Below are positions 3,717-23,368 of a stretch of 23,370 nt of DNA, one piece after another. The DNA is from Leptolyngbya sp. 'hensonii' (GTDB lineage Bacteria > Cyanobacteriota > Cyanobacteriia > GCF-001939115): assembly GCF_001939115.1 (NCBI RefSeq), contig NZ_MQTZ01000045.1, forward strand, positions 162,006 to 185,375, written 5' to 3'. Both the position numbers and the translations under genes were made by a program. The notes under the pieces are model-generated. The model was given only the letters and a program-made list of their open reading frames with translations, was not told where the DNA came from and did not search any database. Positions within the stretch are counted from its first letter, which is position 1. Every line of letters starts with the position of its first letter.

Positions 3717-4787
3717 ATGAGCAGCGTTTTACAACAGCGGCAAAAGCTTGATCCTCTTGCCATCTGGTCAGACTTCGCAGATTGGATTACCAGCACACAA
3801 AACCGGATCTATATCGGCTGGTTCGGGGTGTTGATGATCCCAACCTTGCTGGTTGCGGCCTTCACCTTCATCATTGCCTTTACTGCAGCTCCTCCCGTCG
3901 ATATGGAGGGCATTCGAGCACCCATCACAGGGTCCATCCTGGAGGGTCGCAATCTCATCACAGCCGCAGTGGTCCCAACCTCTGCAGCGATCGGCTTACA
4001 TTTTTATCCCATCTGGGAAGCCAGTTCCCTGGATGAATGGCTCTATAACGGTGGTCCCTATCAACTGATCCTCTTGCACTTTTTAATGGGTATCTGGTCT
4101 TATCTAGGCCGGTTGTGGGAACTGAGTTATCGCCTGGGGATGCGGCCCTGGATTGCTGTGGCCTTTTCAGCCCCGGTCGCTGCTGCGACAGCCGTGTTTC
4201 TGGTTTATCCTATAGGACAGGGTAGTTTCTCTGAAGGTATGCCCCTGGGGATTTCTGGCACTTTCTACTTCATGTTTGCCCTCCAGGCACAGCACAATAT
4301 TCTGATGCATCCCTTTCACATGCTGGGGGTGGCTGGCATCTTGGGTGGTGCTCTGTTGAGTGCTGTGCATGGCTCCCTGGTAACAAGCAGTTTAATTCGA
4401 GAAACCAGCGACTTAGAATCTGCAAATATGGGCTACAAATTTGGTCAGCAGGAAGGAACCTACAACCTGTTGGCTAGCCATGCAGGCTATCTGGGCCGAC
4501 TGTTGATCCCGCAAGTGGGTGCCCGCAATAGCCGTTCAGTTCATTTCCTTTTGGGGGCAGTCCCTACGATCGGCATCTGGTTTGCCGCTCTCGGCATCAG
4601 CACGATCGCCTTCAATTTGAATGGGTTTAATTTCAACCATTCCATTCTGGATAGTCAGGGGCAGGTCATTTCCACGGATGCGGACCTCCTAAATCGTGCG
4701 ACTCTGGGCATTCAGGTGATGCATGGCCTGAATACCCATCATTTCCCGAATCTGATTGCTGGGGGCCAGGAAATTCCACTGAGTTAA
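3717..4787 (+). CDS. psbA: Divergent photosystem II D1 paralogue (rogue/sentinel-type rD1) lacking Mn4CaO5 ligands and the C-terminal extension
   Basis: 356 aa with an ATG preceded by AAGGAG. Clear D1 homology throughout ([54 protein letters not shown]). Aligned to canonical D1: D170->E (FSEGMPLG), E189->Q (LQAQHNIL), E333->G, D342->N (HHFPNLIA), and E130->L. The ChlF QD motif is absent (SYLGRLWEL). The protein ends ...GGQEIPLS without the processed C-terminal tail. Confidence 0.85.
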
Positions 4788-5053: not shown

Positions 5054-6481
5054 ATGAGTAAACAACAGGGGGAAAATACCTACCTCCAACAAGTTCTGCA
5101 AGAAAAAGCTGAGGTGGATCGCAAACTCAGCCGCAGTCGCAGTTCCCTGCCCACTCCATCTGCCCAGTCTAACTCGGGGATGGTATCGCCCCCTGCTAGC
5201 AGGGCGATCGACTATCGCATTACCGGGTTCTGGCTCTGGAAAAGTGTCATTGTTCCGCCCAATGTCTACACCGTGCATACCCGACGAGGGCATCGCGAAC
5301 CCTTACACATGGGCAAAGGCATTTCCTTTCGCTTCAATCCCCTCACGGACGCCTTTCTGGTGATTCCTGCTGCCGTACAAACCATTCTGATCAACGCCAA
5401 CTGCATTTGTATTGAGCGGCAGGGACTTCTGGTGCAAGCCTACGTGCAATGGATTATTGATGATATCCAAACGGCATATTGGAAACTGGATTTTTCTGAC
5501 CTAGAAGACCCGATGGGCATTGTCAATTTACAGTTGCGGGAACAGGCTGAAGCAGCCATTAAAGACAAAGTAGCCACCCTCAGCATTGATGAAGTCTTAA
5601 GTGACAAGCAGCCGATTATTGAGGAACTGACTCATCGTCTGCAAGCAGTTGCGGAGGGCAGTAGGGGTCAGGAAGGTAGCAATTTCCCATCCGAGGGGCT
5701 GGGTCTCAAAATTGTGACAGTACAGATTAAGGAGGCGGTGGTCAGTTCAACTCAGTTATGGCAAAACCTGCAAACGCCCTTCCGCGCAGAGCGGGAAAAG
5801 CTGGCTCGTCTGGCACAACTGGAAAATGATCAGGAAATCAAAGCTCGAGAGCTAGCGAATCGGCTGAGCAATGAGCGGGGTGAGCTGAACGTTGCCAGTG
5901 AAATTGAGCAACTTCGGGCCGAGCAAACCCGGATTGCCTACGATCGTGAACAGACTGAGAAGCTGCGCCGCAATCAGGTAGAGCAGGAGGCTGAGCGTCA
6001 GATTTTGGCGGAACAGAACCGTACAGCCCAGGCCCGCAACCAGGCTCAGTTGGAGCTGGTGTTGCAAGAATTCGAGTTGGAAAAACAACGCATCACAGCA
6101 GAAATGGAGAAAGTGCAGCAACAAATTCAACTGGATGCCGTCGTGGCCCAGAAAACTCGCGCCGAAGTATCTGCCAGCCTGGAGGTGGCTGAATTGCAAC
6201 ACCAGGCTGATGTGGCTCAGCGAGATCGGCAACTTGATCTCGATCGTAAGCGGCGTGAGATTGAGAATGAGCTTTCAGAGCGTCATATCCAGGCCCAGTT
6301 AATTGCCCAATTGCCCGACATTGTCCAACACATGCCAGCCCCCCAAGAACAACGCACCACAATCATCACCTCTGATGCCCAGGAGGGACTGGTCAATCCA
6401 CTCTTAGGCTTTTTGGCAGGTCTGTCCAATTTAACGCAAGATGTCTTTGCCCGAACTCAGACTGACAAGAACACGGATTGA
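5054..6481 (+). CDS. SPFH/band-7 (flotillin-like) domain protein with long C-terminal coiled coil
   Basis: 475 aa. The N-terminal portion resembles an SPFH core (IVPPNVYTVHTRRGHREP..VIPAAVQTILINANCICIERQGLLVQAYVQWII). It is followed by about 250 aa of heptad-like E/Q/R/A-rich coiled-coil sequence typical of flotillins. Confidence 0.5.
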   Translation: MSKQQGENTYLQQVLQEKAEVDRKLSRSRSSLPTPSAQSNSGMVSPPASRAIDYRITGFWLWKSVIVPPNVYTVHTRRGHREPLHMGKGISFRFNPLTDAFLVIPAAVQTILINANCICIERQGLLVQAYVQWIIDDIQTAYWKLDFSDLEDPMGIVNLQLREQAEAAIKDKVATLSIDEVLSDKQPIIEELTHRLQAVAEGSRGQEGSNFPSEGLGLKIVTVQIKEAVVSSTQLWQNLQTPFRAEREKLARLAQLENDQEIKARELANRLSNERGELNVASEIEQLRAEQTRIAYDREQTEKLRRNQVEQEAERQILAEQNRTAQARNQAQLELVLQEFELEKQRITAEMEKVQQQIQLDAVVAQKTRAEVSASLEVAELQHQADVAQRDRQLDLDRKRREIENELSERHIQAQLIAQLPDIVQHMPAPQEQRTTIITSDAQEGLVNPLLGFLAGLSNLTQDVFARTQTDKNTD

Positions 6482-16155: not shown

Positions 16156-16626
16156 CTACTGACAGTGATCAAAAATCCACAGAACATCTTGCAGAAACGG
16201 TGGCGTGTTTTGTGTAATGCGGCCTCGCCGTTGGTAGTAATCATAGCTGCCCAATTCAGCGATTACGGCATACTTGGGTGACTCTGTTTCTTGCCCCAGA
16301 AAAAGTGGTGTAGCAGATTTTAAATTCTGATCAAAAAATGTAATCCACCAGCTCTTGCCCTGCTTTGCATTCTTGTTAACCTGATCCAAAAGTCTAATCG
16401 AGCCATAACCACTAGATTGAGTCACGAGAAATCGGTACAGTTGTCTCTGTTGAGGATGGTTGATGACAGCGGTTGCATGGTAAGGCGTATTGGGGGGTGG
16501 TGGACCAAAAACCAATTGAAATCCTTTGCCATCCCCATCTCGGTAAACGCTTTTCGCAATAGGGCAACCCTGGGTTTGGGCTGCTTTTGCCAAGGCTGGC
16601 ACCGACAGCACCACCATAGATAACAT
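16156..16626 (-). CDS. Secreted hypothetical protein (signal peptide MLSMVVLSVPALAKA)
   Basis: The track ORF runs from a GTG at 16653. The ATG at 16626 gives a canonical signal peptide. There is no recognisable domain. Confidence 0.4.
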   Translation of the reverse strand: MLSMVVLSVPALAKAAQTQGCPIAKSVYRDGDGKGFQLVFGPPPPNTPYHATAVINHPQQRQLYRFLVTQSSGYGSIRLLDQVNKNAKQGKSWWITFFDQNLKSATPLFLGQETESPKYAVIAELGSYDYYQRRGRITQNTPPFLQDVLWIFDHCQ

Positions 16627-16844
16627 AAAGCTGAAGCATGATGAGCGATTCACTCTTACCCCACTCCAAATCCTGTAGACTCCCGGGCACCAGGTGCGTG
16701 GAAACTTAGCCTGTGGTCCCCTTTAATATCCAAATTTAAACCGCATCCATCGCTCAATTCTAGTGATTTCAAGACACCCTCCTATTCTGCCGCTAACAGG
16801 CATTGTGCACCCAGATCGATTTCAGAGGTTAATCCACCGACTTC

Positions 16845-17146: not shown

Positions 17147-17773
17147 TTATTCCACCAGATGTTGATTTTCGGGATTAGTTGCAAGGCTCAGTAGAATATG
17201 GATTTGCTGTCGAAATTCAGCAACCAGGCTGCTATGAACATGTTGTTCAAATAGATCGGCAAGTGCCTGGTGTAGCCAGAGGTTATCCTTTTTGCTGGCA
17301 GCAAAGGCTGACCAGGCACTTTCGCCAGTTTGACGCAGGTTAGTAATCAGCGATCGCACATTGTGTAGCTTATCAGCCAGGATGACGCGCTGGGCTTCTG
17401 GCGAAGCATGGCGAATTTGGTTGAGATAGTCGAGCTTATGGCTTTTCCAGGGTTGGGAAGCAGAGCAGGGAGGAATCGTGCAATCATGAACGATCTCGGC
17501 AACTTGTGAACCATAGCGACGCAGAATTTCTGTGTAGATGGGCTCACCCCCCTGATCCTCAACAGCATCGTGGAGGAGGGCGGCGATCGCTTCATCCTCG
17601 CTGCCACCGTCTTCCAGTACCAGGGCGGCTACAGCCATGAGGTGACTGATGTAAGGTACGGCATTTACTTTACGGGATTGGTAGCGATGTAAGTGGAGGG
17701 CATAGGTAAAGGCATCAGCGAAGCGATCGCTCAAAATCACATCAAGGTGGATCTTTTCAGAAACGTGGGTCAT
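17147..17773 (-). CDS. Stand-alone RelA/SpoT-type HD-domain hydrolase (small alarmone hydrolase/Mesh1-like)
   Basis: 208 aa. HRYQSRKVNAVPYISHLMAVAALVLE...AIAALLHDAVEDQ matches the (p)ppGpp-hydrolase HD signature (H..Q.RK.GEPYI.HPL.VA.IL...AALLHDV.ED). The ATG overlaps the TGA of the upstream gene (ATGA at 17770-17773). Confidence 0.7.
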   Translation of the reverse strand: MTHVSEKIHLDVILSDRFADAFTYALHLHRYQSRKVNAVPYISHLMAVAALVLEDGGSEDEAIAALLHDAVEDQGGEPIYTEILRRYGSQVAEIVHDCTIPPCSASQPWKSHKLDYLNQIRHASPEAQRVILADKLHNVRSLITNLRQTGESAWSAFAASKKDNLWLHQALADLFEQHVHSSLVAEFRQQIHILLSLATNPENQHLVE

Positions 17774-19200
17774 AGCAGGTCATCATCATATAACTGCATT
17801 TCTTGCTTGACTTCCTGAGCGGTACGTTGACGCAATTCCCAGGGAAGCAATACTTCTACGTTGGGTCTCCAGGCGCGGAGTCGTTGGAAAACGTTGGGGT
17901 CATCCTGGCGGTAGTATGCCTGATAGTAGGCATCATCGGGGGAGCGATGCTGCCAGAGGCGCAGGAGATGTTCTTGAAGCTGACCAGAGAGGGTCTGACG
18001 GATGAGGAATTGCACCTGATGATAGGGGATTTTGCGAAAGGTGGTATGGCGCAGGGTGTCGCGAATATAGCGGTCATCCCATTTGCGATCGAACCGTAGT
18101 AGAAGTAAGTGGCGGGGTTGGTAGTAATCAAACCCCCAGGCTTCATCCATCGCCGTTTCGATCTCCTCTGGGGTGGGGAGGGTTTGTTTCTGGTATTGCT
18201 GGTAAAGCTTTCGGGGGACAGTGGTATCTTTCCAATTTAGGGAATCGATGGCGAGGATGCGATCGAGGCGGTAATTGCGCCAGTTGAGCGCAGAACTGGC
18301 TGCTTTGGGAAACTGACCATAGGCACACAGGTAGGGTCCACGACGGTAGTAATAGATGCAAACGGGATAGACCACGAGAGGACAACTCCGGGTTTCCCCT
18401 GCACTCTGGTAGTGAAGGCGTACCGGCGGAATGGGGGTTTGCTGCCAGATCTCTGAGAGTAAGGCTTGCCAGTCATCCACGCGATCGAGCTTGTTTTGGG
18501 AAATGACGTAATCGACATGGACAAAGAAGCGGGGGTATCCCTGGAAGGTCCGGGAGAAGGTGTCAGCAATAGCTGCCAGATCGGGCTGGGTAAACAAGGT
18601 GAGCTCCTGCCCGGAGGGAGACTGGATGATTGGGGCTCCAACATGGGGATAATCGGGATAGGAAGTGACTTTTTGAAATTTGTTTTCCTGGATATGGAGC
18701 CATCCTGTGGTAGCAAGGTGATGCAGATCGCTGGAAAGGGTGCGGCGGGTAAACCCAAACAGGCGAGTTTGAAAAAGTAGGTGATCCAGATTGGGCGGCA
18801 GGAGATCATGGTCAATGAGCGATTGGTGCAGTTGATCGCGCTGTTCCTGGATCTGACCTTGCCCAGGCTGCTTACCCTGGTAAACCTGCCACTGGGATTG
18901 GGTGGTAGTCAAATCTGGATGAAAGAGCCAGGCAGCGGTGGGTTTAGTGCAGGGACAGGAGAGACGGTGGAGGGTTGGTTTGGTTTCCCCGCTGGGATGG
19001 TCAGGGGTGAAAAACTGATCGCGCCAATCTGCGTAGCTGAAGGTTTCTGGTAAAGCCAGGGTGTCACCCATTTCGCCGTAGAGTAGATGTAACCAGACCC
19101 ACAGGCGAATGGCTTGAAGGAAGTTTTGCTTGAGAGAACCCCGCACTAACCACTGCAACAGGGGAATGTTGGGAGACTCTTGCCAAAATGCATCAGCCAT
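17770..19200 (-). CDS. WYL-domain protein (putative ligand-binding transcriptional regulator of the CRISPR/defence island; TIGR03985/sll7009-like)
   Basis: 476 aa. A WYL core is recognisable around GPYLCAYGQFPKAASSALNWRNYRLDRILAIDSL (compare the WYLvGwc...RtFRLDRI motif of PafBC/BrxR-type WYL domains). The gene is transcribed divergently from the csx3-like operon and is translationally coupled to the HD hydrolase. Confidence 0.5.
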   Translation of the reverse strand: MADAFWQESPNIPLLQWLVRGSLKQNFLQAIRLWVWLHLLYGEMGDTLALPETFSYADWRDQFFTPDHPSGETKPTLHRLSCPCTKPTAAWLFHPDLTTTQSQWQVYQGKQPGQGQIQEQRDQLHQSLIDHDLLPPNLDHLLFQTRLFGFTRRTLSSDLHHLATTGWLHIQENKFQKVTSYPDYPHVGAPIIQSPSGQELTLFTQPDLAAIADTFSRTFQGYPRFFVHVDYVISQNKLDRVDDWQALLSEIWQQTPIPPVRLHYQSAGETRSCPLVVYPVCIYYYRRGPYLCAYGQFPKAASSALNWRNYRLDRILAIDSLNWKDTTVPRKLYQQYQKQTLPTPEEIETAMDEAWGFDYYQPRHLLLLRFDRKWDDRYIRDTLRHTTFRKIPYHQVQFLIRQTLSGQLQEHLLRLWQHRSPDDAYYQAYYRQDDPNVFQRLRAWRPNVEVLLPWELRQRTAQEVKQEMQLYDDDLL

Positions 19201-19338
19201 ATCCTAGATGGTGCTCTATCAATTTGCCTACTTGTATGAGTGTGCCACAGACATGGAGGAGAGGGTTTCCAATTGAATGCCTCTTAAGCTGATATTGAGG
19301 TTGAGAATCCAACATGTTCCTTTGATAGGATCAGTTTG
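19201..19338. promoter_or_regulatory. Divergent intergenic/promoter region between the WYL-domain gene (minus) and the csx3-like operon (plus)
   Basis: 138-bp non-coding gap between two divergently oriented start codons. This is the likely site of autoregulation by the WYL protein. No operator has been defined. Confidence 0.3.
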
Positions 19339-19695
19339 ATGTCAAACACTATTTATATGGCTGCGATCGAGTTGACGTGTATTTCTCATCGGACAGCATC
19401 AGGGCTCGCCTATCAGCACTTGCATATTCATCTGGCAGCGGAAGATGGGTTGATTGAGCCAGAGGACTTGAAAGGGCTGGTTGTGCCAGACACAATCGTG
19501 TGGAGTCAGGGAGTGGTGATTGAAGGAAAGGCTCCCATTTGGTTGTATGGCTATCTGGTGCATGCCTGTCATCCAGCGGCTTGGGTCGCCTGTTATGATC
19601 CCCGGCTGGGAGATGGGGGTGGGGCAGTAGTGGTAGCCACCCATGCGCGCCAAGTGAAAGTTGGTGAAGTGCTTCTTACGACGTTACCCCTATGA
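19339..19695 (+). CDS. Csx3-like small protein (putative Crn3 ring-nuclease family)
   Basis: 118 aa from the ATG at 19339; the track uses a TTG at 19336. The motif GKAPIWLYGYLVHACHPAAWVACYDPRLGDGGGAVVVATH resembles the Csx3 core as recalled (PIW..YDPRLGAVVV). It is clearly paralogous to the N-domain of the next gene. Its stop overlaps the next ATG (ATGA at 19692-19695). Confidence 0.45.
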   Translation: MSNTIYMAAIELTCISHRTASGLAYQHLHIHLAAEDGLIEPEDLKGLVVPDTIVWSQGVVIEGKAPIWLYGYLVHACHPAAWVACYDPRLGDGGGAVVVATHARQVKVGEVLLTTLPL

Positions 19696-20579
19696 TTCGC
19701 TTAAGCCGAATTGAGTCGAATTATCAGGTTGTGTCGGTGTTACCTCATGCGGAGGGACGGGCGATCGACCCTATAGAACTGATCGACCTGCAGCTCCCTC
19801 ATGATGTGGATCTAAAGCAGCCTGTGATTCTGTTTGGTCCCGTGCCTACTTGGGTTTATGGGCGGCTGGTTGCCCTATGCCGGGAGGCTCCCTGGGTTGG
19901 TTGTTTCTCGGCTCCAGAGGCAGAAGCAGTCGTGATCCAAAGTCGAGTGGCGAATGTGGCAGTGGGGGATGTGATTGCCATTCCGCTGGGGCGGGAAAAG
20001 TTGGCTCCAGCGGTGCTGGTAGTGGGACCGCCAGATAGTGGGAAGAGTGTTTTGTCGAATGCATTGCGCAGGAGTTTACTGGCGCATTATCCGCACAGTT
20101 CTATCTTTTTGCATCGGGCGAATTGGGATGGTGAGGGGAACTGGAGCCATGAGGGGCAAGATCATGCCCTGATCCAGCGTCTTGTGCGGAACCATGAACG
20201 CCGCATTCACGAACGCCCCTCTGCAACAGAATTGATGGCGGCGTTTTTTGCCTATCACGAGGCAGCGGTGATGAATTTGCGGCGGGTGGTGGATCTGGTG
20301 ATTGTGGATGTGGGAGGGAAGGTGCAACCTGAGAAGGCAGGGGTGCGCGATCGCTGTACCCATGGGGTGATTATTAGCCGCGCACCGGAACTGGTAGGGG
20401 AGTGGCGCAGGTTTTGTGAGCCAACGCTGGAGTTGCTGACGGTGATTCACAGCGTACTGGAGGAACGGTGTGAGGTGAAGTCGAGAGTACCCCTGGAGGT
20501 AATTGCGGGACCTTGGTTCCGGGGGAAAACGCACCAAGTGCCAGAGGTGGTGTGGCAGGCAGTGGGGAAATTGTTATAG
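19692..20579 (+). CDS. Csx3-like N-terminal domain fused to a P-loop NTPase (Csx3-AAA-type fusion)
   Basis: 295 aa. Residues of about 40-100 (GPVPTWVYGRLVALCREAPWVGCFSAPEAEAVVIQS) align with the upstream small protein. Walker A VLVVGPPDSGKSVL and a Walker B-like VVDLVIVDVGG follow. Confidence 0.5.
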   Translation: MIRLSRIESNYQVVSVLPHAEGRAIDPIELIDLQLPHDVDLKQPVILFGPVPTWVYGRLVALCREAPWVGCFSAPEAEAVVIQSRVANVAVGDVIAIPLGREKLAPAVLVVGPPDSGKSVLSNALRRSLLAHYPHSSIFLHRANWDGEGNWSHEGQDHALIQRLVRNHERRIHERPSATELMAAFFAYHEAAVMNLRRVVDLVIVDVGGKVQPEKAGVRDRCTHGVIISRAPELVGEWRRFCEPTLELLTVIHSVLEERCEVKSRVPLEVIAGPWFRGKTHQVPEVVWQAVGKLL

Positions 20580-20591
20580 CCCTGGTTAGGA

Positions 20592-21776
20592 CTAGCCAAA
20601 ATCTTTGCCGATACGCTGGTTCAGATCTAAAAGGCAAGCTTGTCGCTCACCAAGTGTTTGACTGGAGGTTTCGATCTCAAACCGAACTATCCAGGTGCCG
20701 TTGCTCAGCGTTCCTTCCAAGGCATCTCCTTGCAAACGAAAGGAATTGAGGCTGGAGAGTGCGGGATTCCAGTAGAAGGTGCGACAGCCTGTGACATAGG
20801 GGCAGACATCGGTGATGCGTTGCAGGTAACGGATGATTGGGTCTCTGGCATTACCCCAATTATGGTTAGACATCTGGGGTTTACGTTTCTGTTGCGGGGG
20901 GACTGGAGATGGCAAATGCAACGCCATTTGTGGCAGTTGTCGTTCTCGAAATGCCTCATAAAATACCTGACCTGTGGGCGACAGGGTGATGTAAACCTGC
21001 CCGTCAATCTCTACTCGTTCTACCAGGGGTTCCAGGGCTTCTGACCAGTCATCCTGCACGGTTTCCCAGGGGGTCTGGTCGTGGGAGTTGCGCCCCAAAG
21101 CAGTGAGCCAGCCGTTATGCTGAATCCACAGGTCAAAATCCAGGCTGACGGGCATGGGTGGAAAGGCGATGATTTCGCTAAACCGTTCATGTTTGTAGTA
21201 AACCGGAACTTTGAGCGCCTGCCCCAATAGAACGGCGATCGCAATTTGTGCTTTATACCCCCCCGTGGCGTTGATCGCGCAATACTCGGCTCCGCGCAAC
21301 CGCAATCCGCAGGACATTTGCTTAACCAGGTTGCGTAACCCATCAGTGCGAAAGGTTTTGGGATGATTGTCTTGAAGCCCTTCTACTCGATACGGAGTGG
21401 CGGTATGCCCCAGTGCCTGGTAGTAATGAACCAGGAGGGTGGCGATCGCAGTGCCTTCGTCAGTGTCAGAGTGACAAAACAGGAGGGTGGCGGTAGGGGT
21501 GACATAGCCCCGCTGGAGCAAATCACCAATGGAGTTGATTTCGGCTCCACATAGACGCAGGGTGGGCGGAAGCTGGCTTAAATGCAGGGCGAGGGTAACC
21601 CAATCAGTATGCTCAAAGGTGGTTTTGAGGGTGGCAACGGTATCAGTGGTGAGATGGGCACGATCGGGGACAGGCTGTTTTTGGAGCCACTCATCGTAAT
21701 GGTCGGGGGCAGGCAAGGTTCTAAGATTGGGATTAAACAGGCTCGTACCAACGGTACAGATAAGGGTATGACGCAT
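20592..21776 (-). CDS. CARF-domain protein (cyclic oligoadenylate sensor) with an uncharacterised C-terminal domain of about 190 aa
   Basis: 394 aa. The N-terminus MRHTLICTVGTSLF is the CARF motif-I glycine/serine loop. AINATGGYKAQ is the CARF motif-II GG(Y/F)K. The C-terminal half has no convincing HEPN Rx4-6H motif, no clear PD-(D/E)xK motif and no HTH. Confidence 0.6.
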   Translation of the reverse strand: MRHTLICTVGTSLFNPNLRTLPAPDHYDEWLQKQPVPDRAHLTTDTVATLKTTFEHTDWVTLALHLSQLPPTLRLCGAEINSIGDLLQRGYVTPTATLLFCHSDTDEGTAIATLLVHYYQALGHTATPYRVEGLQDNHPKTFRTDGLRNLVKQMSCGLRLRGAEYCAINATGGYKAQIAIAVLLGQALKVPVYYKHERFSEIIAFPPMPVSLDFDLWIQHNGWLTALGRNSHDQTPWETVQDDWSEALEPLVERVEIDGQVYITLSPTGQVFYEAFRERQLPQMALHLPSPVPPQQKRKPQMSNHNWGNARDPIIRYLQRITDVCPYVTGCRTFYWNPALSSLNSFRLQGDALEGTLSNGTWIVRFEIETSSQTLGERQACLLDLNQRIGKDFG

Positions 21777-21794: not shown

Positions 21795-22172
21795 TTATTG
21801 GGGATATAGGTTTATATTCACATTGCAGGCACCCAGCGGATTGACGCAGATTGGCATACTATAGCGAACTCGAAAAACCCCTTCTGCACCGGAGGGAACA
21901 TTAAAGAAAATGGTTTCGTTCCCAAGCTTCTTACCCCGAGCAAATCGCTGACCTGTCGTGTCGTAGAGTTCCACATCCACATCGCCCAGAACAGACGTGG
22001 CTTCGAGGATGTAGCCTCCTGGTCTATTGATTGTCAATCTCACCCAATCCGTCCCTCCGGCATAAAGGGGGCGTACTGCTTCAGCTTTCGCTGTAAGTGG
22101 GTCCAATCTTTCCATCAGCACGATCGTCAGACACGCAAGGGAAACTCGGCTCATCAAGCGTTTGTAGTTCAT
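21795..22172 (-). CDS. Small secreted protein with a PPC (pre-peptidase C-terminal)-like domain
   Basis: The track ORF runs from a TTG at 22202. The ATG at 22172 gives MNYKRLMSRVSLACLTIVLM. LGDVDVELYDTTGQ resembles the PPC GD(A/V)DLYLY motif. It lies 18 bp upstream of the CARF gene, probably in the same transcript. Confidence 0.35.
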   Translation of the reverse strand: MNYKRLMSRVSLACLTIVLMERLDPLTAKAEAVRPLYAGGTDWVRLTINRPGGYILEATSVLGDVDVELYDTTGQRFARGKKLGNETIFFNVPSGAEGVFRVRYSMPICVNPLGACNVNINLYPQ

Positions 22173-22360
22173 GGTATTGTTCCTATTTTTTGAAACCACC
22201 AAACCAGGGGTTGAGAGGTTGCGGTTGGTGGGGCTGGTTTAGTGCAACTGGTCATAGCTTATTCGATGTCTGGAAGGGGGTACTTCCAAGGAGCGATCGC
22301 GGGTTGAAGGGATGGGGCAATCGGGCAGTGGAGTTTTTAGGATCGTGGATTTAATAACTC

Positions 22361-22662: not shown

Positions 22663-22687
22663 GTTTTTTCAACAGTCCCCAATTGGG
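22663..22687. repeat. Degenerate, internally deleted CRISPR repeat (GTTTTTTCAACagtCCCCAATTGGG) at the array trailer end
   Basis: Matches the repeat 5' part GTTTTCAAC and 3' part CCCAATTGG, with about 13 bp deleted between them. It lies 8 bp before the first intact repeat. Confidence 0.4.
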
Positions 22688-22695
22688 ACGACTGA

Positions 22696-23368
22696 GTTTT
22701 CAACTATTCCAATTTGACCCAATTGGTAGGGGTCCTGAGTGCTCAGGAGCAAGCGGATAGGGATGCCGCTAGAGAGTTTTTCAACTATTCCAATTTGACC
22801 CAATTGGTAGGGACAACTCTCGTCGTGACTCTCCGAGTCTCGATGGTTCTAAGGTCGGTTTTCAACTATTCCAATTTGACCCAATTGGTAGGGAAGTGGT
22901 TGCAAAATGCAAAGACGGAGTTGTTGTGGAGAACTCCGCTGGGTTTTCAACTATTCCAATTTGACCCAATTGGTAGGGGGTTGCGAAGTAGTTGGGAATC
23001 TTTGTTTTCTTCGAGAAAGTTTTCAACTATTCCAATTTGACCCAATTGGTAGGGTGTGCTTGCTGCGGTTATTGCACTGGTGATTTGGCTTCTAGTTTTC
23101 AACTATTCCAATTTGACCCAATTGGTAGGGTTTGTTTTTTTGAAAAAGCAGGAGAATTTCCCATGTCCAACAAAGGTTTTCAACTATTCCAATTTGACCC
23201 AATTGGTAGGGGGTCATTGTTTCAGTTGTTTATTCCCTTTTCAAGGAGAAGTTTTCAACTATTCCAATTTGACCCAATTGGTAGGGACTTTGTTTACACC
23301 TGGAACGAAACCAACAATGGCACTACCACCTAGTTTTCAACTATTCCAATTTGACCCAATTGGTAGGG
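22696..23368 (-). CRISPR. CRISPR array with at least 9 identical 36-bp repeats GTTTTCAACTATTCCAATTTGACCCAATTGGTAGGG and 8 spacers of 39-49 bp. The array continues beyond the window end.
   Basis: Repeats lie at 22696-22731, 22777-22812 (first base T), 22858-22893, 22943-22978, 23019-23054, 23095-23130, 23176-23211, 23251-23286 and 23333-23368. The reverse complement ends ...ATAGTTGAAAAC, the usual 3' GAAAC-type handle. This, together with the degenerate repeat at the left end, suggests minus-strand transcription with the leader to the right of the window. There is an internal 6-bp palindrome CCAATT/AATTGG. Confidence 0.95.

Follow-up and report, generated by a model that had tools for sequence, protein, structure and literature searches.

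On balance, we consider that the minus-strand gene at positions 20592 to 21776 of the window (that is, of the whole 23,370-nucleotide stretch of Leptolyngbya sp. 'hensonii' DNA analyzed here) encodes a cOA sensor-effector of the CARF7 (Crf7)-DUF2103-like family, in which protein the chassis of Cami1 would carry a different alpha+beta module of ~110 residues in the place of RelE. The ATG-started frame of 394 aa is intact in the list of open reading frames, and the gene is an intact further example of a family already catalogued, not of a new type; so that the "undescribed type" announced in the original prediction has to be abandoned (PDLC01930; PMC12669027; PMC12065111). The encoded protein consists of three domains, not two, which are distributed as follows:

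20592..21776 (-): the whole gene, for a CARF7 / wHTH-like / DUF2103-like protein of 394 aa, with the stop codon at 20592-20594
21141..21776 (-): the CARF7 sensor domain, residues 1-212, with the GTS (S12) and GGYK (K175) motifs
20937..21140 (-): the middle helical winged-helix-like domain, residues 213-280, common to Cami1 and the Crn1-type ring nucleases
20595..20936 (-): the C-terminal 'DUF2103-like' domain, residues 281-394, the predicted effector module

The family assignment comes from the PADLOC profile PDLC01930 'CARF7--CARF_DUF2103', which matched residues 1-389 of the protein along positions 1-352 of its 353 (E=1.8e-117). The PADLOC profiles discriminate between the related architectures, since Cami1 and Sll7062 matched the RelE profiles over their full length and the Nostoc homologue matched the DUF2103 profile. 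The Pfam DUF2103 model (PF09876), for its part, gave no match at E<=1 to any of the 40 diverse members compared with it; the name 'DUF2103' is therefore nominal, and the label should at best read 'DUF2103-like'. The CARF7/Crf7-DUF2103 family is reportedly carried in the classification of Makarova et al. of 2020. Furthermore, Supplementary Table 2 of Makarova et al. (2025) lists DUF2103 as an effector domain fused to Crf7 (PMC12669027), and the Menshen paper, also of 2025, describes a 'DUF2103-like' domain without a structural homologue that is fused to Cas_APE2256 and also figures among the variable effector domains at the C-terminus of the Menshen protein NsnC (PMC12065111)—in the latter instance within a different sensor and delivery context, Menshen not being CRISPR. 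In the literature searched, we found no experimental characterization or activity of the CARF7-DUF2103 family.

The N-terminus reads MRHTLICTVGTSLF, and the GGYK motif occupies residues 172-175; in an alignment of 64 homologues both of these CARF motifs were invariant or nearly so. The Pfam family Cas_APE2256 (PF09651) matched residues 75-207 (E=1e-32) and the NCBIfam model TIGR02619 also matched (E=7.5e-14), both of them above the curated cut-offs, while NCBIfam gave nothing outside the CARF region. These matches, together with the two motifs, bear out the N-terminal CARF domain that had been proposed, and the expected structural similarity to CARF folds is present as well, Cami1 being the best fold match in the PDB (Foldseek E~1e-15). 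Residues S12 and K175 line up with S12 and K169 of Sis0811, which pair is key for the degradation of cA4 (PMC9638899). Of the other sensor profiles in PADLOC, that of CARF4 gave a weak match restricted to residues 120-264 (E=2e-5).

As to the protein as a whole, the AF2 model reached a pLDDT of 90.9 and a pTM of 0.86, and a whole-protein profile compared with the PDB sequences returned CARF7 proteins as the only significant matches. In that model the middle domain is formed by helices at residues 214-228, 237-243, and 246-251, strands at 252-257 and 260-265, and a last helix at 267-277. Residues ~213-277 match the helix-turn-helix domain of Cami1, Sis0811, and SSO1393: the hhalign comparison with Cami1 covered residues 4-276 at a probability of 99.2, the alignments of PDB HMMs extended to residues 274-275, and Foldseek aligned the entire chains of Sis0811 and SSO1393, CARF and HTH included. 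Consequently, the earlier statement that the ~190 residues beyond the CARF domain match no known type holds for residues ~281-394, but not for residues ~213-277; likewise, of the PD-(D/E)xK, RelE, HTH, and TM signatures said to be missing, the HTH is in fact there, whereas the other three are indeed missing from the C-terminus.

Among the known systems, Cami1 (CARF7-RelE, from Allochromatium vinosum; PDB 8PHB/8PHJ) is the nearest in build: its CARF7 and winged-helix-like domains are homologous (28% identity over ~250 residues), its size is similar (381 aa vs 394 aa), it is likewise encoded inside type III loci, and both proteins have a C-terminal effector slot of ~110 residues and likely intrinsic ring-nuclease residues. 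The difference resides in that slot, which in Cami1 is occupied by RelE and here by a module that is not RelE by either sequence profile or fold. Once activated by cA4, Cami1 cleaves mRNA in the ribosomal A site in a ribosome-dependent manner (PMC11229360). The next-best structural matches were the large stand-alone ring nucleases of the Crn1 type, Sis0811 and SSO1393 (Foldseek E~1e-10), which share the CARF7 domain, the HTH, and the aligned Ser/Lys pair, but end after the HTH (~275 aa) and thus have no conserved extra domain of 110 residues.

The C-terminal domain was modeled on its own with a pLDDT of 94.3 and comprises an ordered N-terminal arm followed by an alpha-beta4-alpha arrangement; namely, a long helix, a four-strand meander, and a C-terminal helix. 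The mean column identity was 63% in this domain versus 54% in the whole protein. Pfam searches with residues 205-394 and 296-394 gave no match at E<=10; no HEPN, PD-(D/E)xK, RelE, or TM family of Pfam, NCBIfam, or PADLOC matched the C-terminus; and a PDB fold search with the domain found no significant match, with neither a HEPN nor a PD-(D/E)xK chain among the results. The resemblances below significance were to profilin, roadblock, and longin, as well as to hot-dog and 2H enzymes. A profile of the domain compared with the PDB sequences returned ribosomal protein L13 only (E=0.18, a chance match), and a profile search of the domain alignment against a set of 5.8 billion proteins returned four short proteins. 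The profile and fold searches thus left residues ~281-394 without a confident match to HEPN or to any characterized CARF-linked effector. The inspection of conservation, for its part, did reveal a set of polar residues of the Lys/Arg/Tyr/Asn/Ser/Thr kind: across divergent members K297, C331, Y335, N337, F346, R347, S358, K/R365, T370, and N386 are conserved, and no Asp, Glu, or His is conserved at >=80%. This composition resembles the chemistry of the RelE type, and would equally fit a binding domain. From the strand periodicity and the conservation, rather than from coordinates, the conserved polar residues may form an active-site face.

The PD-(D/E)xK type of Can1, Can2, Card1, and Cdn1 was discarded, since the CARF4 match was only weak and no PD-(D/E)xK chain appeared in the fold searches with the domain; Cdn1 (9U49), a metal-dependent CARF nuclease, was a weak match of the whole protein (Foldseek E=9.5e-3, TM 0.24).

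That the protein might be a Csx1/Csm6 whose HEPN nuclease domain has degenerated, the alternative contemplated in the original prediction, seems to us scarcely credible. Apart from the PADLOC 'Csm6' profiles, whose matches are confined to residues 51-217, i.e., to the CARF region, what speaks for it is a single R-x6-H string, RKPQMSNH at residues 298-305; of these residues, R298 is variable, and H305 is retained only among the close relatives, the more distant ones having lost it. The claim that this string is not a HEPN motif was therefore right, but its placement inside a linker was not: the segment is modeled at pLDDT >90, so that it is not disordered, and the region includes the conserved K297, P300, and L302. 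Moreover, the sensor is of the CARF7 clade and the C-terminal domain is alpha+beta instead of an all-alpha HEPN bundle, has no conserved R-x4-6-H motif, and is strongly conserved rather than decaying. A Cami1 whose RelE-fold mRNA interferase had diverged past recognition would account for the chassis and the operon position, which are those of the CARF7-RelE proteins, for the Foldseek alignment to Cami1 spanning about 400 columns, and for the conserved Lys/Arg/Tyr set, which resembles the atypical catalytic residues of RelE. Even so, we regard this divergence as very improbable: hhalign comparisons with the RelE domains of E. coli RelE, Cami1, and Sll7062 reached probabilities of 0.2-0.3% only; the PADLOC RelE profiles, which span true RelE fusions from one end to the other, stop here at about residue 290; the helix, four-strand meander, and helix differ from the pattern of RelE, which we read as beta-alpha-alpha-beta3; and the global TM-score to Cami1 was only 0.46-0.50.

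One homologue is 88% identical over the full length, and the relatives number >1700; one scan located relatives in 373 species genomes of many phyla. Among the 75 loci fetched, 56 contained type III RAMP or Cas10 genes, and the relatives' gene is usually the last or the first of the type III effector operon. The GGDD-like motif was present in all 44 Cas10 proteins of >=480 aa and the HDxGK motif in only 3 of them. In 22 of the 45 Cas10-bearing loci we saw no other recognized CARF protein—a count in which unannotated singleton ORFs of those loci could hide other effectors—while Csx1 co-occurred in about a third of the Cas10-bearing loci. The homologue on the Nostoc plasmid pNe_2, which is 54% identical, occupies the operon slot that on the Synechocystis plasmid pSYSA belongs to the CARF7-RelE protein Sll7062 ('SyCsm6'), both being the last of a type III-D-variant operon. 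Sll7062 nevertheless differs in matching the RelE profile, not that of DUF2103, over its full length (E=2.9e-124), and its hhalign alignment to the CARF7-DUF2103-like family ends at about residue 292. Outside these architectures, the same C-terminal domain also occurs without CARF, as the C-terminal part of a protein of 949 aa encoded on a 4.6-kb contig (P0165); three further stand-alone or otherwise odd copies comprise one that resembles a split gene (P0153), one at a contig edge near Cas10 (P0186), and one following a type III restriction-modification system (P0163).

In the window, the gene is accompanied by the following features:

17147..17773 (-): an HD_4 protein (HD of the RelA/SpoT type), forming a pair with the WYL gene (Pfam HD_4 E=1.1e-17)
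17770..19200 (-): a WYL-domain CRISPR-associated regulator (TIGR03985 E=3.2e-92; PADLOC WYL E=2.6e-160)
19336..19695 (+): a stand-alone Csx3/Crn3 ring nuclease (Pfam Cas_csx3 E=1.9e-32; TIGR02579 E=5.9e-27)
19692..20579 (+): a Csx3-AAA fusion (PADLOC PDLC01045 E=6.5e-61; Pfam Cas_csx3 E=1.8e-17)
22696..23368 (no strand assigned): a CRISPR array with at least 9 copies of the 36-nt repeat GTTTTCAACTATTCCAATTTGACCCAATTGGTAGGG spaced 75-85 nt, which runs past the end of the window

The vicinity of Csx3-like ring nucleases and of a CRISPR array is thus as had been noted, and the Csx3-AAA gene converges on the CARF7 gene with a gap of 12 nt. The HD+TIGR03985 pair is likewise present on pSYSA, in common with the Leptolyngbya window, and also in five related loci. 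An Rfam scan of the window gave no matches. The 23-kb window contains no Cas10 or RAMP genes, so that this copy is tied to a cyclase by analogy with its relatives.

That the protein is a cOA-gated effector we consider likely, and of the "effector or regulator" initially proposed, the effector is the better reading, in view of the relatives that reside in type III loci with a GGDD-bearing Cas10 and often as the sole CARF protein. In such a response, the type III Cas10 would sense invader RNA and make cOA, with cA4 as the most likely ligand; the cOA would bind the CARF dimer, the CARF7 and winged-helix-like chassis being presumably dimeric, and the C-terminal domains would then be repositioned and unleashed so as to arrest growth. 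We infer for the protein both an activation as a dimer and a toxicity. The most likely activity would be either a metal-independent RNA cleavage or an inhibition of translation through the conserved Lys/Arg/Tyr/Asn/Ser/Thr surface, although that the C-terminal domain should be an RNase in particular we propose only as a possibility, and a rather doubtful one. In the CARF pocket, with its S12 and K175, cA4 would probably undergo a slow degradation, and the two ring nucleases encoded next to the gene, Csx3 and Csx3-AAA, would help to end the response. Sll7062 exhibited ring-nuclease activity, whereas an RNase activity was not seen in vitro (PMC9676260); accordingly, silence in vitro would not be decisive either way for the present protein.

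Two other functions must be weighed against that of an effector acting on RNA. The protein might mainly serve as an off-switch or a regulator; that is, as a large ring nuclease of the Crn1 type (CARF7+HTH) that degrades cA4 and/or binds DNA by means of its winged helix, the C-terminal domain being noncatalytic and devoted to dimerization or to the binding of a ligand or partner. This alternative is in keeping with CARF7 being the Crn1 clade and with Sis0811 and SSO1393 ranking next after Cami1 structurally, with the conserved ring-nuclease Ser/Lys pair, with the interaction modules of the profilin, roadblock, and longin type among the weak fold neighbors, and with the missing invariant Asp, Glu, or His of a catalytic kind; and the Csx1 of about a third of the Cas10-bearing loci could be the real effector there. 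We nonetheless judge it unlikely, because where the protein is the sole recognized CARF alongside a Cas10 that bears GGDD and mostly lacks HD, a pure off-switch would leave the locus without an output. In addition, two dedicated Csx3 ring nucleases already adjoin the gene, and the C-terminal domain fills the RelE slot of a homologous chassis, recurs C-terminally in non-CARF proteins, and exceeds the rest of the protein in conservation. A cOA-gated effector that did not act on RNA—altering or degrading instead a nucleotide, a cofactor, or a protein, or plugging a cellular machine stoichiometrically—is an improbable alternative in our estimation. CARF effectors with non-nuclease outputs do exist in the recent literature, such as the deaminase Cad1, the phosphatase CARF-HAD, and the TIR protein Cat1, and the median pI of the C-terminal domain, 8.6, makes it only mildly basic. 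All the fold matches of that domain, however, fall below significance; a 2H phosphoesterase (Usb1/Acb1/CPDase) is discarded by the absence of the H-x-T/S-x catalytic motifs and of any His conserved family-wide, and a hot-dog enzyme by the lack of conservation of the catalytic acid or His; furthermore, the C-terminal modules of Cami1, the closest architectural analogue, and of the Menshen NsnC are mostly nucleases.

Returning to the cOA-gated effector on the Cami1 chassis, we tentatively entertain, while not holding it to be probable, that its C-terminal domain represents a class of cOA-activated toxin that is new in both fold and catalysis, has no relation to RelE, HEPN, PIN, PD-(D/E)xK, or any other known nuclease superfamily, and was recruited independently by type III CRISPR through CARF7 and by Menshen through NsnC. 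If this were true, the domain would constitute a further mechanism of the abortive or dormancy immunity of type III—for example, a new attack on translation or RNA—as well as the sole output of many cyclase-only type III-B/D systems of the cyanobacteria, Planctomycetota, Latescibacterota, and other phyla.

Because of the homology to Cami1 in the CARF and helix-turn-helix portion, HMM-based surveys could easily miscount these proteins as Cami1/CARF-RelE, from which the annotation should separate them. In type III CRISPR a single signal, cOA, leads to many different cellular outcomes, and the effectors already characterized—Cami1, Cad1, Cam1, Cat1, and CARF-HAD—have revealed new ways of arresting the cell. 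The activity of the CARF7-DUF2103-like proteins, once worked out, would fill one of the larger gaps in the catalogue of type III effectors, and their C-terminal domain could yield a new cA4-switchable enzyme.

The protein encoded by the gene under study, whose type had earlier been thought undescribed, adds a new member to a catalogued and widespread family, since the PADLOC-DB profile CARF7--CARF_DUF2103 (PDLC01930) matched it end to end (E = 1.8e-117; residues 1-389 against positions 1-352 of 353). The PADLOC profiles for CARF7 fusions discriminate well between the RelE and the DUF2103 types. Cami1, the CARF7-RelE effector of Allochromatium vinosum, and Sll7062, a CARF7-RelE protein of the Synechocystis plasmid pSYSA, were matched at full length by CARF_RelE_like (E = 3.7e-195) and CARF_RelE (E = 2.9e-124), respectively; the Nostoc homologue of the target was matched by the DUF2103 profile, and the RelE profiles ended near residue 290 of the target protein. 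The DUF2103 label itself is nominal, because the Pfam DUF2103 model matched none of 40 diverse family members at E ≤ 1; and a literature search found no report of a biochemical activity for CARF7-DUF2103 proteins.

With a full-length homologue of 88% identity as the nearest database protein (hypothetical, from an Elainellaceae cyanobacterium MAG) and more than 1700 relatives at E ≤ 0.001, nearly all of the best 120 sharing a length of ~390 aa, the gene is intact and under selection. Its product and its surroundings are laid out as follows.

20592-21776, minus: target open reading frame (ORF list), ATG start, 394 aa
Residues 1-212 of the target: CARF domain (AlphaFold2 model, Pfam and TIGR02619 matches)
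Residues ~213-280: helical, winged-helix-like domain (AlphaFold2, profile alignments, Foldseek)
Residues ~281-394: C-terminal domain, an ordered N-terminal arm and then alpha-beta4-alpha
3717-4787: psbA, which marks the host as a cyanobacterium
17147-17773, minus: HD_4 (RelA/SpoT-type HD) protein, 208 aa (Pfam)
17770-19200, minus: WYL/TIGR03985 protein (profile matches)
19336-19695, plus: stand-alone Csx3, 119 aa (profile matches)
19692-20579, plus: Csx3-AAA (P-loop) fusion, 295 aa, convergent with the target
22696 to the window end: CRISPR array, at least 9 repeats of 36 nt

Both CARF motifs of the original prediction were found—the N-terminal start MRHTLICTVGTSLF and GGYK at residues 172-175—within a protein that Pfam Cas_APE2256 matched over residues 75-207 (E = 1e-32) and TIGR02619 matched as well. 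The AlphaFold2 model, computed with 64 homologues as input, was confident (pLDDT 90.9, pTM 0.86) and had three domains, so that of the two halves first proposed the CARF half stood, and the other resolved into two domains. Through the middle domain, the profile alignments with Cami1 (PDB 8PHB/8PHJ) extended to residue 274-276, and Foldseek aligned the whole CARF+HTH chains of the Crn1-type ring nucleases Sis0811 and SSO1393 to the model; thus part of the C-terminal half, said to match no known effector, has known relatives. For the last ~110 residues that claim held: Pfam gave no match even at E ≤ 10, a profile of 48 diverse copies of the domain found nothing significant among the PDB sequences, hhalign returned a probability of 0.2-0.3% against E. 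coli RelE and the RelE domains of Cami1 and Sll7062, and the best Foldseek hit in the whole PDB had E = 0.08. The expectation of CARF gating combined with an effector module that resembles none of those characterised was in this way borne out.

Modelled on its own, the C-terminal domain reached a pLDDT of 94.3; it comprises a helix (308-324), antiparallel strands (328-337, 345-349, 352-358, and 363-370), and a final helix (375-388). The segment RKPQMSNH (residues 298-305), previously assigned to a linker, lies according to model and alignment within the ordered, conserved arm, where K297, P300, and L302 are conserved. As had been argued, this segment is not a HEPN motif, because R298 varies and distant members lack H305; the alternative of a degenerate Csx1 was rejected as well. 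A 2H identity was ruled out by the missing HxT/S motifs that define it.

No part of the protein is more conserved than the C-terminal domain, with a mean column identity of 63% versus 54% for the whole. In a set of 49 sequences, made up of the query and 48 cluster representatives (50% identity), conservation was at least 80% at L288, P289, K297, P326, V328, C331, Y335, N337, L340, F346, R347, S358, G360, V368, T370, A372, L385, and N386, and at no Asp, Glu, or His of the domain; position 365 was K or R in 45. Judged by strand periodicity, F346, L348, I353, Y357, V364, F366, and V368 would form the face that presumably packs against the helices, and R347, E354, S358, T363, K/R365, and E/D369 the opposite one. 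RelE and other RNases that need no metal work with a surface of Lys, Arg, Tyr, Asn, Ser, and Thr that lacks metal ligands. The predicted polar surface free of metal ligands, the chassis shared with Cami1, and the nuclease-rich modules of NsnC, a non-CRISPR Menshen effector whose variable C-terminal domains include a DUF2103-like one, make RNA cleavage or an attack on translation our leading, if tentative, guess for the output; other outputs are possible, since the weak fold neighbours include non-catalytic interaction modules and small-molecule enzymes. Outside CARF proteins, the domain was found at residues 849-947 of a 949-aa protein (P0165; locus L083, 875-3724) and as a stand-alone 133-aa gene (P0163; metagenome contigs L086/L087, 6001-6402) with no CARF gene nearby and immediately behind a type III restriction-modification pair (ResIII helicase and N6_N4 methyltransferase). 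Such occurrences would fit a portable defence module; P0165 may be an NsnC-type effector as in PMC12065111, the contig being too short to tell.

When one genome per GTDB species was scanned, 373 species genomes encoded a relative (43-75% identity over the full length), in Cyanobacteriota, Competibacteraceae, Planctomycetota, Latescibacterota, Poribacteria, Binatia, Dehalococcoidia, Bacillota, and others. The ORFs of 80 fetched loci, the window, and two plasmid loci were clustered, and the representatives, checked against PADLOC, were identified as Cas10, Cmr4, Csx1, CARF-TM, CARF-PD-DExK, Csx16, and CARF-AAA-HTH. Type III RAMP or Cas10 genes were present in 56 of 75 relative loci, the target homologue usually lying on their strand and first or last in the effector operon. 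A GGDD-like motif was present in every one of the 44 Cas10 proteins that reached 480 aa, and HDxGK in only 3; these type III systems have to signal by means of cOA. In 22 of the 45 Cas10-bearing loci there was no further recognised CARF protein, and no Csx3 or Csx16 ring nuclease was visible in 34; the family protein is often the sole visible cOA receiver in its locus, which, in loci that must signal by cOA, is the strongest argument for an effector and not merely an off-switch.

Csx3/Crn3 ring nucleases are specific for cA4. The genes of this type beside the target, whose presence there along with a CRISPR array had been anticipated and was confirmed by profile matches and a repeat search, encode ring nucleases (NCBIfam and PADLOC profiles), and cA4 is used by two CARF7 relatives, Cami1 and Crn1 (PMC11229360, PMC12669027, PMC9638899), for which reasons cA4 is the likely ligand. 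Residues S12 and K175 of the target align with S12 and K169 of Sis0811, which are reported to be key for cA4 degradation (PMC9638899), and among 64 homologues K175 was invariant and S12 nearly so; this conservation and the lack of extrinsic ring nucleases in most related loci suggest a self-limiting ring-nuclease activity, as reported for Cami1 (PMC12409355), ring-nuclease activity being also reported for Sll7062 (PMC9676260).

The window contained neither a Cas10 nor a RAMP gene. At 22665-22685, directly ahead of the first full repeat, a degenerate and incomplete repeat copy, TTTTTCAACAGTCCCCAATTG, suggests that the array end nearest the target is the trailer end, with the leader, and probably also the cas genes, outside the window. 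In Nodosilinea PCC 7104, the closest well-assembled relative (62% identity), the order is Cas10 ... Cas1 - array - target - Csx3-AAA - WYL - HD, and the cas genes absent here probably lie beyond the array.

The tandem Csx3 genes (19336-20579, plus) overlap by 4 nt, as do the HD_4 gene and the TIGR03985 WYL gene upstream of it (17147-19200, minus). The latter pair recurs on pSYSA and in five related loci of cyanobacteria; it may represent a conserved accessory module in which a WYL regulator possibly controls a nucleotide-signal hydrolase. Upstream of the target by 18 nt, and on its strand, lies a 135-aa ORF (21795-22202, minus) whose N-terminus resembles a signal peptide; it had no Pfam, NCBIfam, or PADLOC match, and its only homologue occurred in the locus of the closest relative (L003, cluster c54). 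CHAT proteases serve in some type III systems; the 728-aa TPR-CHAT protease (85-2271, minus; CHAT E = 1.4e-69), which is ~15 kb away from the accessory genes of the CRISPR region, is probably unrelated to them. At the thresholds applied, Pfam matched neither a 475-aa ORF (5054-6481, plus) nor a 165-aa ORF (16156-16653, minus), the latter being also without an NCBIfam or PADLOC match.

On the Nostoc edaphicum plasmid pNe_2, a homologue of 54% identity stands last in a Cas10/fused-RAMP/Csx19/TIGR03986 operon, exactly the position held by Sll7062 in the equivalent type III-D-variant operon of pSYSA; the final CARF7 fusion is DUF2103-like in Nostoc, whereas in Synechocystis it is RelE, so that the effector module has been swapped within an otherwise equivalent operon. 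That natural swap could be used for comparative experiments; and although the existence of the target protein would not surprise a specialist, the activity of its family is still a worthwhile target.
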